Shown in pieces: positions 2,997-7,956 of a stretch of 64,000 nucleotides of DNA. The DNA lies in assembly GCA_029820565.1 (NCBI GenBank), contig JALGUR010000022.1, positions 17,731 through 81,730 on the forward strand, written 5' to 3'. Source of the stretch: Candidatus Zipacnadia bacterium. GTDB lineage: Bacteria > Armatimonadota > Zipacnadia > Zipacnadales > Zipacnadaceae. Within the stretch, counting starts at the first letter, position 1; each line of letters begins with the position of its first letter. Made by a program: the position numbers and the translations under genes. The notes under the pieces are model-generated. The model did no database searches, was not told where the DNA came from, and worked only from the letters and a program-made list of their open reading frames with translations.

Positions 2997-3476
2997 GTGG
3001 CACTACTTCGGAGGAGTATAGACAGTGTGTTGGCGAGCCGATGGGTCCTACTAACCTTGCGGCTGGCTATTGGGGCAGTGTTCATCATAGCCAGTTGGGA
3101 CAAAGTGCTGAACCCGGGCCGGTTTGCCGAGATTATCGAAGGTTACAAGATCGTCTCAGGATATCCAGTCCAGGCATTAGCCGTGTGGCTGCCGTGGGTA
3201 GAACTCGGGGTTGGCCTGATGTTGGTTGCCGGGATTTGGATACGAGCCGCGGCGCTACTCTTTTCGGGTCTAACGATAGTGTTTATTGCTGCCATCGCCT
3301 CAGCCTTGGTTCGGGGATTAGACATACAGTGTGGCTGTTTCTCGCTTTCTCTTGGTAGCGACGCTCGGACATGGGTCTCGCTGTGGCAGGAGATTGCCCT
3401 GCTAATGGGTTGCCTATGGCTATGGGTAGCCTCTTGGCCTGCCACCGGAACTCAACCTTCACAGACCGATAAGTGA
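2997..3476 (+). CDS. MauE/DoxX family redox-associated membrane protein
   Basis: LRLAIGAVFIIASWDK, LPWVEL and RGLDIQCGCF motifs; GTG start. Confidence 0.85.
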   Translation: MALLRRSIDSVLASRWVLLTLRLAIGAVFIIASWDKVLNPGRFAEIIEGYKIVSGYPVQALAVWLPWVELGVGLMLVAGIWIRAAALLFSGLTIVFIAAIASALVRGLDIQCGCFSLSLGSDARTWVSLWQEIALLMGCLWLWVASWPATGTQPSQTDK

Positions 3477-3539: not shown

Positions 3540-5633
3540 TTAGGTTTCTACCTGCAGGTAGTCGCGCAGTATCTGAGTACGACGGGGATCGCGGAGTTTC
3601 TTGAGCGCTTTGGATTCAATCTGGCGAATGCGCTCGCGGGTGACATCAAAGATGTGGCCTACTTCCTCCAAAGTGCGAGGATAGCCATCCTCCAGGCCAA
3701 ACCGTAGTTTGAGCACTTCGCGCTCGCGTCCCGTGAGGTCGTCCAGCACCCGATTGAGTTGTTCACGCAGTACCAGATTAGAGGCCAGATTAACGGGGGT
3801 TTCTTCTTCTTCATCAGGCACAAAATCGCCGAGGTAATTATCTTCTTCTTCACCGATGGGAGCCTCCAGAGAGAGAGGCTCAGGGGCAATACGTTTGACT
3901 TCGGCGACCCTCTCGACAGGCATATCCATCTCCACAGCGACCTCATCAAGGGTGGGTTCGCGGCCGTATTGCTGGAGAAGTTGTCGTGAGGTCTTGACCA
4001 ACTTGTTGATGGTCTCGACCATATGGACAGGGATACGAATGATGCGGCCTTGGTCAGCCAAGGCCCGGGAGATAGCCTGGCGAATCCACCAGGTAGCATA
4101 AGTGCTGAACTTGTAACCCTTACGATAATCAAATTTCTCTACGGCCCGCATCAGTCCCACATTGCCCTCTTGGATCAGGTCCAAGAAACTCATTGCGGAG
4201 CGCCCGGTATACTTTCGGGCGATGCTAACCACCAGACGGAGGTTAGCTTCAGCCAACGCGGCAACTGCATCTTCGTCTCTGAGTTTCATACACGAGGGGT
4301 CTATGCTGCCGGGATCCACAATGCGAGTGAAAGACGCTTCGATGAGACCATACAAGCCAGCTCCCTCGGTCTCATCAGGCGGGAAAATGGAACCTACCTG
4401 CATGGCAGTGCGGGTCGCGGTCGTAGTGAAGTCAACGGTAACCGGTTCGGGCAAGGGGTAGCCGGTAGTTCCTTTAATACCATCCTCGCCTGCCTTCAAA
4501 GTTAGCGTATAGGCCATCTCAGTGGTCAAAGGATCGCGGGGCAAGAAGCGAATTTGACGGCGCTCAGCGTCATAATAAACCTTTCCGGAGACGGGATTAT
4601 TCATTGCGTCCCGGACTTTGACGGTCTTAGAGGTGACCGTACTGGGGTCTAATTGGCGATCCACAGTAACTGTGATGGGAGCAGCAATGCTAACGTTGGT
4701 AGCCTCCGCAGCAGGTTGAGTATTCACCACCCGAGGGGCCGCCTTCCGATAAGTAGTTTCAAACTGAAACGTGTAATCAGCCGCCAGAGGACGGCCGTCC
4801 TCGGTATTGATGCCTTCCTCATCTCCTCGGACGGTTACAGCAAGTTTGTTGCGATGGCGCAGGGGCTGTTTGGGAGTAAACACCAGCCGCCAGGGGTCAG
4901 GCCCCACTTTGACTCTCCCCAGAACCTGGCGACCTTTGCCATCAATAACTTCTATCTTCTGGGACGTGACCGACGCGGGATCCAGAGCATCATTGAAATA
5001 GATGATGATGGGACTATCCACGTCCACCTGCTGTTGACCGTCAGCCGGATAGGTTCTGGTTATCTGCAACGGACCATCAGCCGCACGAGTTCGGAACGAC
5101 CACATATAGTCAGAAGCCAGCGAGTGGCCAGTAATGTCGTATAAACCATCATCACCGTCACGCAAGATTACGACGTAGAGAGTATCCGGTTCCAGGCGCT
5201 CGTGGGGGTGAAAGCGCAGAGCGTTATGGGCCTTGTCATAGCTCAATTCTCCCTCGCCTTTTTGGACACGTCGAGCTAGTTCTACCTCCTGCTCAGCGGT
5301 CAGCAGAGGCACCTGCCCAATAGCATGTAGATACATACGGACTGAATCATCAACCGGTACACCTTCATCCTCGTCGGCTGTATCTTCTTCTTCCTCCTGG
5401 CGATGTTCCCGGGTGGCCTTTTCATCCTTCGCCACATAAATACCGGCACCGTGTAAGACTCGATATATCTCCTCAATATCCTTGGCGTCCAGAAGTTCAT
5501 TATCAGCCAAGGCTTCCTGAATATCACTATACGTTAGATAGCCCTGCTCGCGTCCCTTGGTTAGCAGGCTTTCCACTTCGTCAATGTCCCGAACGTCAGC
5601 CGGTTTTTTGTCAGTCTGTTCGTCCTCGGGCAA
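3540..5633 (-). CDS. rpoD: primary RNA polymerase sigma factor RpoD with inserted Ig-like domains
   Basis: Region 1.1 ([12 protein letters not shown]), 1.2 ([26 protein letters not shown]), 2 ([31 protein letters not shown]), 3 ([13 protein letters not shown]) and 4 ([23 protein letters not shown]) all intact; directly downstream of dnaG; TTG start after GGGAG. Confidence 0.95.
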
Positions 5634-5639
5634 CTACAC

Positions 5640-7655
5640 TCAACTCCCTGAGTTATGCTCTTCGTCCTCAGCCTGGTCTGAGGACTGCTCGTCGTGAGAC
5701 GGTTTCCTTTGTGTTGCTGCCACGGTTCCATCGGTCTCGACAAAGTCGAATTGACCTTTCCCGTGAAACAGCATTACCAAGCGCAGAAACTTTTGATAAT
5801 CGGGATGCTCGTGAGTCAATTCTCCGGTTTCCGCCAGATTAGCTACTCGCTGCTGGAGTCGGTAAAAATCTTCAATATCGGCTTGACCGTTCTGGTCAGC
5901 GGATAACTCCGTGCCGCGAATCTCGTATTCCTCCTGCAAACCGGCCCCAGACCGATGTTTGCGCAGTTTGGCGGCCGCATCTTGTAGCATCTCCTCGTCC
6001 AGCTCATCAACAGGCGGCACTAATAGTAGTTCTATGCCGCGGTCCCGGGTTCCTTCCTCTTCGGGGAGTTTATCCACTAATCGGCCCGGGTCGTACTGGT
6101 CACCTGCTGCTAACTGGTCGGATATAGCCTGGGCGATCTGGCGATGTTGAGGGATAGCAAAGTCATTGGGATTTATCTGGGCAAAGACTTGTTGGGCCAG
6201 ATCGGGACTTTCCAGCGCGGCAGCCAGCAGTTCCTTCTCCAACTTCTCCCACCACGCCGGTTGCTCCGCGTAGCGAGCCACCGCATCGGTTATGAAACTG
6301 CGGTCGCGCGGCGAGTTGGCAGTAATCTTGGGAGCGCTCGTTCTGCGCCGACTAGCCCGGCGCCGCAATTCCATCTGGAGGGCCCGCTGCATACTTTCGG
6401 TGCGGCCCGGTTGGTCCTGGGCCCACAGATCACCGGCGCGCGCGATAAACTCGTTGCGGCGCGTGAGGTCAGCAACATCGGCCAGCACATCTACCGCGGC
6501 GCGCGCGGCTCGCACCATACCATCAGCGCCTTGATTACGATACTGACCGAACACCATATCCAGGCGATACTCCACTAAACCAACCGCCTCGTTGATCAAC
6601 TGTCTAAACTGCTCAGCACCATGGCTGCGGACGTAATCATCAGGGTCCTGACCTTCGGGCAGGACCAGTATCTTTGCCGCCAGACCGCTGCGCTCAAACA
6701 AATCAATATTGCGCAGGGCCGCTTGCATTCCACCGGCGTCCGCGTCATAACACAATATGACTTCGTCAACATAGCGACCCAGCAGGCTCAAGTGGTCTGA
6801 GGTCATGGCAGTGCCCAGAGTCGCTATCACATTGCTCAGGCCGGCCTGGTGGAGAGCAATGACATCGGTGTAACCTTCCACGACAATCCCATACTTGTCG
6901 GCCACTAACTGCTGACGGGCCAGGTCCAACGCATACAGATTACGGCCTTTGCTAAACAAGGGAGTGTCGGGAGAGTTAAGGTATTTGGCTGGCTCCTCAG
7001 GATCCATAGCCCGGCCGCCAAAGGCAATTATCGTCCCGGCCGCATCAGTGATGGGAAAGATGATGCGGTGGCGAAACACATCGTAGTGGCTGCCGCGATC
7101 GCTCTGCTTAATCAGTCCGGCTTCCTGGGCAATATCAGTACTGATACCCTTGCCAGCCAGTAACTTGAGCAAGTCATCCCACGCATTGGCAGCGTAACCC
7201 AACTCAAACTTATCAATGACCTCATCAGTAAGGCCCCGCTCGTGGACATAGGCAAGCGCGGCGGCTCCCCGGGACTGACCGAGATTGCGCCGGAAATGCT
7301 CAGCCGCCAATTGGAGGGCGCGGTGCAAGAGTTTACGGCGCTGCACCTGGGCCTCGTCTGCCGGCCTCGCCCGCCATGGCAGGCCGACTCGTTGGGCCAG
7401 CCGCTCCCCCGCCTCCGCGAAACTTATTCCCTCTATCTGCATCAAGAACGCGAATACGTCGCCACCAGCACCACATCCAAAACAATGCCAGAATCCACCC
7501 GCAGGGTCTACATAGAACGAGGGATTCTGTTCGGCGTGGAAGGGGCAGCAAGCCTTGAACCGGCGACCCGCCCGTTGCAGAGGGACATATTGAGAGATCA
7601 ACTCAACAATATCAACCCGGCGCTTGATTTCTTCCTTAACGTCGTCCCTATCCAT
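5640..7655 (-). CDS. dnaG: DNA primase
   Basis: CPFHAEQNPSF...HCFGCG zinc-binding domain; KYLNSPDT, VVEGYTDV and CYDADAGG TOPRIM motifs; KDPD-like QDPDD. Start at ATG 7655. Confidence 0.97.
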   Translation of the reverse strand: MDRDDVKEEIKRRVDIVELISQYVPLQRAGRRFKACCPFHAEQNPSFYVDPAGGFWHCFGCGAGGDVFAFLMQIEGISFAEAGERLAQRVGLPWRARPADEAQVQRRKLLHRALQLAAEHFRRNLGQSRGAAALAYVHERGLTDEVIDKFELGYAANAWDDLLKLLAGKGISTDIAQEAGLIKQSDRGSHYDVFRHRIIFPITDAAGTIIAFGGRAMDPEEPAKYLNSPDTPLFSKGRNLYALDLARQQLVADKYGIVVEGYTDVIALHQAGLSNVIATLGTAMTSDHLSLLGRYVDEVILCYDADAGGMQAALRNIDLFERSGLAAKILVLPEGQDPDDYVRSHGAEQFRQLINEAVGLVEYRLDMVFGQYRNQGADGMVRAARAAVDVLADVADLTRRNEFIARAGDLWAQDQPGRTESMQRALQMELRRRASRRRTSAPKITANSPRDRSFITDAVARYAEQPAWWEKLEKELLAAALESPDLAQQVFAQINPNDFAIPQHRQIAQAISDQLAAGDQYDPGRLVDKLPEEEGTRDRGIELLLVPPVDELDEEMLQDAAAKLRKHRSGAGLQEEYEIRGTELSADQNGQADIEDFYRLQQRVANLAETGELTHEHPDYQKFLRLVMLFHGKGQFDFVETDGTVAATQRKPSHDEQSSDQAEDEEHNSGS

Positions 7656-7956
7656 AACCACGATGTGTCACTCACAATTAGTTCGACGAATTACTATATG
7701 TAGAAGTTCTCCTGGGCCAGCAATAATCCTCCTTTGGCATTTGGGCCGGTCTTCCGGGCGGCTGAACTTGCTGAAGTCTACGCTCGACACGGCCCCTGCA
7801 ATGGTCAAGATGGTAAGTCGTGCGGAGGGGCCGGTCGCCGCAGGCCCAGCGAAGCGCAGGCCTGCCAGGCCGGCCCTATTCTTCCAATCTTCACCAAAAG
7901 ACAGCGGCCCCGCCGCAGCGAGGCCGCTGTTACCAATAACCGAGGAGTGGGACAGG

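Follow-up and report, generated by a model that had tools for sequence, protein, structure and literature searches.

The housekeeping sigma factor of a Candidatus Zipacnadia bacterium carries, as we think highly probable, an out-of-phase module of Big_5 domains that is closed by a permuted third domain and was likely captured in one step from a tandem-repeat gene. The gene lies in a 64,000-nucleotide stretch of contig JALGUR010000022.1 (assembly GCA_029820565.1), termed the window in what follows, and all positions below are those of this stretch. Few bacterial proteins are as conserved as the primary sigma factors, whose single variable site is little understood outside Proteobacteria. In this lineage an Ig-like module, of a fold unreported at that site, fills it across a whole class. 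Its order, half domain, two whole domains, half domain, offers a testable answer to the problem of inserting a domain with far-apart ends into a tight turn. As a natural, long-lived circular permutation made from repeat units, the module could serve as a guide for engineering domain insertions; the surface of RNA polymerase that it marks is specific to this lineage and would be worth a structure.

The gene and its surroundings

The rpoD open reading frame occupies window positions 3540..5633 on the minus strand; from a TTG start it encodes 697 aa, a primary sigma factor with a Big_5 insert. In a Pfam scan of the whole protein, sigma region 1.1 is found at aa 18-90 (window 5364..5582, minus strand; PF03979, E 1.8e-14) and region 1.2 at aa 96-127 (window 5253..5348, minus strand; PF00140, E 1.8e-16). 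Regions 2.1-4.2, together with the stop codon, take up aa 453-697 (window 3540..4277, minus strand), with region 2 at aa 460-530, region 3 at aa 540-615 and region 4 at aa 629-681 (PF04542, PF04539 and PF04545). Regions 1.1, 1.2, 2, 3 and 4 are therefore all present in the order of a group 1 sigma-70 factor, each above its Pfam cut-off, and between regions 1.2 and 2 the same scan places Big_5 (PF13205) in three stretches.

The curated RpoD model TIGR02393 (RpoD_Cterm) matches the protein at 361.6 bits, above its cut-off of 354. The full-length RpoD equivalog models stay under theirs (NF004208 scores 491.8 against 555), as is expected with a foreign insert, and from aa 453 onward the protein aligns to solved SigA and RpoD chains. 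A match to the NCBIfam model MzaA was rejected, at 354.5 against a cut-off of 800.

Upstream of rpoD lies dnaG, encoding primase (window 5640..7661, minus strand; DNAG_N, Zn_ribbon_DnaG and Toprim domains), in a dnaG-rpoD arrangement with 7 bases from the end of dnaG to rpoD. The other sigma matches in the source genome are two open reading frames of 277 and 243 aa with regions 2-4 only. Because the 697-aa frame has all regions, matches the RpoD model and adjoins dnaG, and because the other sigma matches have only regions 2-4, it is very probably the housekeeping sigma factor of the source genome, which is 89.5% complete, such that a second RpoD copy is possible. Downstream of rpoD, on the opposite strand (window 2997-3476, plus strand), is an ordinary gene for a 159-aa MauE/DoxX-type membrane protein.

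Organization of the insert

The insert comprises aa 128-452 (window 4278-5252, minus strand), 325 residues in all, and is three repeat units long (59+48, 111 and 107 residues). It was divided into four pieces that were scanned one by one against Pfam. The first piece, H1, is a C-terminal Big_5 half with the linker to the following domain (aa 128-186, window 5076..5252, minus strand); the slice aa 127-186 matches only positions 58-105 of the 105-position PF13205 profile, at 25.1 bits against a cut-off of 23.6 (E 3.1e-5). Two full Big_5 domains follow, D1 (aa 187-297, window 4743..5075, minus strand) and D2, which has the intact loop (aa 298-404, window 4422..4742, minus strand). Both match profile positions 4-105 above the gathering score, D1 at 50.2 bits (E 4.8e-13) and D2 at 71.4 bits (E 1.2e-19). 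The last piece, H2, is a linker with an N-terminal Big_5 half (aa 405-452, window 4278..4421, minus strand). The slice aa 405-455 of the source RpoD, scanned alone, had no Pfam match; the H2 slice of its orthologues matched PF13205 at E<=1 in 26 of 34, always at profile positions 1-45, with two of these matches above the cut-off. Weak Pfam matches to bMG1 and CopC fell below their cut-offs and are read as fold likeness only.

The relation of the halves to the whole domains was established by profile-profile alignment (hhalign) on slices of a 34-sequence alignment, with 40 column-shuffled controls for each half. Homologues had been collected as 12 sequences from the protein database and then 33 orthologous genes from the genomes of relatives. 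H1 aligns with positions 53-110 of D1 (E 7e-19) and 53-107 of D2 (E 8e-20), and H2 with positions 1-43 of D1 (E 4e-11) and 1-44 of D2 (E 2e-12); H1 and H2 gave no hhalign alignment with each other (score 9.7). The real halves score 53-97, against maxima of 21.9 and 15.4 for their shuffled controls. When the halves are rejoined with H2 leading, they align along positions 1-110 of D1 (score 141.0) and 1-107 of D2 (score 148.8), and D1 itself aligns with D2 along positions 4-107 with a score of 147.9. In the native order of the halves, one half alone aligns to D1 or D2. Intact repeats of unrelated giant Big_5 proteins are likewise matched by an HMM built on the rejoined halves, along HMM positions 4-106 and at up to 65.1 bits.

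By these alignments, H1 and H2 are exactly complementary, without overlap. The sole part of the intact repeat missing from them is a six-residue loop, AMNNPV. The split unit (aa 405-452 plus aa 128-186) is assigned to Big_5 through the slice matches and the rejoined-profile alignments rather than through a rejoined Pfam scan. It has the same structural elements as an intact domain in rotated order, with the C-terminal half first and the N-terminal half last, and is in this sense a circular permutation.

An earlier note, made by reading the sequence, had described a circularly permuted Big_5 insert at 4278-5255, a span that corresponds to aa 127-452 of RpoD, and all the peptides that it quoted are present in the protein. 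Its order of a C-terminal Big_5 half, two full Big_5 domains and a complementary N-terminal half inside RpoD is confirmed at the sequence level by the Pfam slices and the profile-profile alignments. The note had also put the break in a short loop of the intact repeat, and the stretch of D2 matched by neither half is indeed that loop, AMNNPV(S).

Insertion point

Query residues 127 and 453 align to one shared residue of SigA, residue 150 in 7l7b_F and residue 128 in 8x6f_E, both of which are solved SigA chains lacking the non-conserved region. An insert-free RpoD of the same class (L040) reads ...RGD-REAKRKL... at the insertion point. Taken together, the shared SigA residue and the insert-free sequence indicate that the insert is a clean addition at one peptide bond, in the turn between regions 1.2 and 2.1. 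Residue 375 of Escherichia coli sigma70 aligns to query residue 456, just past the insert.

Distribution and sequence conservation

Among 41 genomes of relatives, 34 have the full-length form in one piece, five have it cut by contig ends, and two, which are 80% and 89% complete, show no RpoD. For the whole class (79 genomes) the count is 64 full-length forms, nine fragments with parts of the insert, one insert-free form, and five genomes without a match (66-89% complete). The insert-free form is a 378-aa RpoD (L040, at G180:C2:1431800-1433300) from genome G180, reported as 100% complete; a sigma factor can therefore function as such without the module.

In a sample of 151 genomes from the phylum the insert was found in 14, all from the source's own class; one genome had no match, and in the remaining 136 each listed match spans C-terminal sigma regions only. 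Among the matches listed, 9 of 79 loci have the full-length form, under the titles Armatimonadota, uncultured Armatimonadia, Candidatus Zipacnadum and Candidatus Zipacnadia, and a search for proteins of near length returned 13 sigma factors of 674-699 aa. In the best 150 of 1.84 billion representatives, three match the whole insert profile in one stretch, and these three are Big_5-bearing RpoDs of 699-717 aa (by Pfam, with 12 of the 150 scanned); Big_5 repeat proteins longer than 1000 aa make up 56 of the same 150.

The order and breakpoints of the module are identical in all 38 inserts read (the 34 aligned and four more), down to 35% identity. In 31 of the 34 sequences the slice corresponding to aa 120-460 is 339-343 aa long; the three exceptions measure 348, 351 and 355 aa. 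In the four further sequences the distance from the region 1.2 motif to the region 2.1 motif is 368-383 aa, against 42 aa where the insert is absent. Slice lengths or motif spacings thus agree within about 16 residues across the 38 inserts. The earlier note had suggested a search for relatives with a different number of repeats and the same breakpoint; none was found among the 38 inserts, the 79 genomes of the class and the best 150 of 1.84 billion representatives.

Averaged over pairs, sequence identity is 0.45 in H1, 0.36 in D1, 0.40 in D2 and 0.32 in H2, compared with 0.86 in the sigma core and 0.54 in the N-terminal part. By the Nei-Gojobori method, the eight closest pairs have dN/dS values of 0.00-0.30 in the insert segments, 0.00-0.04 in the core and 0.03-0.23 in the N-terminal part. 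From these comparisons the module appears old, fixed and under purifying selection that is much looser than that on the sigma core. The long-term selection that had been proposed for it is upheld by this dN/dS range and by a layout that is kept across the class.

Three RpoD genes of other Armatimonadota classes (L015:615-2603, L016:695-2536 and L017:205-2145, with open frames of 614-663 aa) have 235-258 residues without a Pfam family between regions 1.2 and 2, which points to a different, unannotated insert at the same site in those classes. Other members of the phylum (L018 and L040) have no insert. Second long sigma-like open reading frames, of 505 and 791 aa, were seen in genomes of relatives (G010:C103:800-1618 and G019:C96:66638-66940); they have 52-57% identity to RpoD regions 2-4 and may be paralogues.

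Structure prediction

When AF2 was run on the whole protein, pLDDT came out at about 85-95 for residues 125-455 (78-91 in H1). The region 1.2 helix (113-124) is followed by three residues and then by a strand (128-133); at the other end a strand (449-453) runs directly into the region 2.1 helix (454-476). Strand lengths and spacings of H1 and H2 equal those of the matching halves of D2. The sigma core of the model is poor, with pLDDT under 50 and an overall pTM of 0.54, so the seat of the module on sigma or on RNA polymerase is not readable from it. As a side observation, this model, made with a 13-sequence alignment, left the highly conserved sigma regions 2-4 under 50 and gave the insert about 90; the poor model of the sigma regions is probably due to a shallow alignment of near-identical sequences.

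For the insert alone, with 34 sequences, AF2 gave a mean pLDDT of 93.4, no residue under 70 and a pTM of 0.86. We read this pTM as placing the four pieces of the predicted model in one fixed frame, that is, as a rigid body, since a model in which D1 and D2 were rigid and both halves loose would scarcely score above roughly two thirds. The earlier note had named an AlphaFold model as a check on its reading, and in the event neither half is predicted to be disordered. AF2 tends to complete familiar folds.

The two halves were also submitted to a two-chain test as separate chains (127-186 and 405-455). The score was 0.35 in three of three runs, with 0.00 for the best of three controls, and is rated a weak pass. 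The pass mark is reached by 58 of 80 solved complexes and by 2 of 110 mismatched pairs, and scores of 0.60 or less include 7 of the 80 solved complexes and both of the passing mismatches. Between runs, at least 93% of contacts recur, and the partner has a pLDDT of at least 67. A pass of this kind may reflect the likeness of the halves to solved Ig folds, and it shows that the halves can lie together, not that they pair within the same chain.

Fold comparison with the PDB (VIA-align) matches D1 to the CopC structure 2c9r (Z 14.7, rmsd 1.6, 95 aligned residues) and D2 to the CopC structure 5icu (Z 12.9, rmsd 1.7, 97 aligned residues). Foldseek and VIA-align together match D1 and D2 alone, to CopC, to the Ig-like domains of LdtMt2 and to SbsC. 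No listed PDB row, each of which states just the first and last residue aligned, has the split domain as one unit; model residues outside 65-289 are barely covered in these rows, which accordingly have no bearing on that domain.

The prediction strongly implies, by indirect evidence, that H1 and H2 would pair into a third Big_5 domain. The earlier note had proposed that the halves fold together to close a ring of three domains. The halves are complementary, they score as a full domain when rejoined, and AF2 is confident of them, all of which speaks for the predicted third domain and for closure; the two-chain test adds a weak pass.

The halves might instead be atrophied leftovers that do not pair. 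They would then pack on their neighbours (H1 on D1, H2 on D2) or on sigma, or hang loose, leaving the insert as two domains on an open chain that is frayed at both ends. H2 would suit this description in lacking a Pfam match in the source protein and in being the least conserved segment of the insert; the two-chain pass is weak, and the pairing is drawn from confidence scores and secondary structure. Decay of this kind would hardly leave two exactly complementary halves that have lost a six-residue loop and nothing else, and both halves have high pLDDT inside a module of high pTM. H1 and H2 are moreover under purifying selection as D1 and D2 are, and no slack separates entry from exit at the insertion site. 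We therefore regard unpaired halves as very unlikely.

Pairing could also take place between molecules, with H1 of one sigma completing H2 of another in a domain-swapped dimer or chain, and the two-chain test cannot separate contact within a chain from contact between chains. Entry and exit at one peptide bond put the halves of the same chain side by side, and AF2 is confident of the single chain. A primary sigma factor must also bind core polymerase 1:1, and exchange between molecules is on these grounds exceedingly unlikely.

Proposed closure of the module and possible roles

By strands, the order of the module is C'-G of one domain, two whole domains, and then A-C. Under the preferred reading, pairing of the halves within one chain, H1 and H2 would most likely pack as a third, circularly permuted Big_5 sandwich. 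The cut C-C' hairpin of this sandwich would be the point where the chain enters from sigma and returns to it, through two neighbouring antiparallel strands, and D1-D2 would bridge the far-apart native N and C termini. The result would be a closed, rigid body of three domains with its two ends side by side, and it is this position of the ends that would suit the module to a turn without slack and keep the flanking sigma helices next to each other. An ordinary Ig domain, or a series of whole domains in phase, would have its ends at opposite poles and would not fit without long linkers.

Its position, like that of the non-conserved region in E. coli sigma70, would put the module on the exterior of the holoenzyme beside sigma2. 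From there it might influence promoter opening or escape, or it might offer a docking surface. The insert segments are near neutral to acidic (pI 4.6-6.8) and so offer little to suggest DNA binding; docking or a steric effect seems as likely.

Comparison with other inserts

The non-conserved region of E. coli sigma70 is likewise a large lineage-specific insert, of similar size and at the same site between regions 1.2 and 2.1. The two showed no relation in sequence, and the Zipacnadia module is in the AF2 model a set of three beta-sandwiches, whereas the E. coli region is helical. The Pfam family for the Sigma70 non-essential region is not listed in the scan of the whole RpoD, where the insert is matched by Big_5.

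Other parts of the transcription machinery have comparable additions. Lane and Darst are said to have described, in 2010, lineage-specific insertions in RNA polymerase beta/beta' made of repeats of sandwich-barrel hybrid motifs. These too are beta-rich repeat modules at surface sites of the transcription machinery, fixed in whole lineages; they differ from the RpoD insert in subunit and in fold, and we know of no permuted closing domain among them.

In main texts of the openly accessible literature, no sigma factor was found described as carrying an Ig-like or Big_5 insert, and the main text of PMC10290634, which names Ca. Zipacnadia, mentions sigma, RpoD and RNA polymerase zero times. We consider the Ig-like sigma insert new; lineage-specific sigma inserts and natural circular permutations are kinds already known.

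Probable source of the repeats

D1 and D2 are full members of Big_5 (PF13205), a family of tandem-repeat proteins with the CopC-like Ig fold. The giant Big_5 proteins among the matches are long repeat arrays, whereas the RpoD insert has exactly three out-of-phase units, one of them split across its ends, and, unlike those arrays, sits in a cytoplasmic transcription factor. The insert profile is collinear with giant Big_5 proteins in one stretch (profile 124-440 against residues 1294-1607 of P0017). Its units score up to 65-88 bits against outside repeats, and against each other their medians are 45-70. Because the insert fits tandem Big_5 arrays collinearly and its units resemble outside repeats no less than one another, the simplest and most likely reading of the sequences is the one-step capture of an out-of-phase piece of exactly three repeats from a tandem Big_5 gene.

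The module might alternatively have been built in place, from one permuted domain to which D1-D2 was added later by internal duplication or by a second insertion. All three units are Big_5 and lie about equally far from each other, which would agree with such a history. The native termini of an Ig domain lie at opposite ends of the sandwich, and a lone permuted domain would have to bridge them. No relative with zero or one full domain was found among the 38 inserts, the 79 class genomes or the best 150 of 1.84 billion representatives, and stepwise growth would leave it odd that the units match outside repeats as well as they match one another. Assembly in place is on this evidence very unlikely.

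Under the preferred reading, one-step capture, the form of the captured piece can be considered. The earlier note had suggested a DNA circle looped out of a tandem Ig-repeat gene. The tandem Big_5 source fits; the circle is not needed, as a linear out-of-phase piece of three repeats gives the same order. A circle excised by recombination between repeats could explain the exact length of three units, and selection among linear pieces could equally do so, since only a self-closing piece would fold. The sequences are too diverged for the two to be distinguished.

The folding step is physically plausible, in that tandem homologous domains form circular-permutant domains from their C-terminal and N-terminal parts, as described in the review PMC6863430. 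The likeness to the RpoD insert is that a C-terminal part and an N-terminal part of homologous repeats make one domain. The RpoD insert differs in that it would join the native termini by two whole domains, not by a short linker, in that its new termini are welded into a host protein, and in that the permuted form would be a conserved native state and not a misfold.

It is possible, though we hold it doubtful, that a tandem Ig-repeat gene gave up in a single event an out-of-phase piece of three repeats, linear or circular, which closed on itself through its complementary ragged ends and could so lodge in an essential protein at a turn too tight for an ordinary domain, and that the module is now a working part of the holoenzyme of this class that contacts promoter DNA or docks a regulator. 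If true, beta-sandwich arrays would have a general route for seeding insertions.

The source genome has four other open reading frames with Big_5 matches, one of them of 3370 aa. This long frame, with its Big_5 match at G000:C119:24789-25121, is a possible example of a repeat gene of the donor type.
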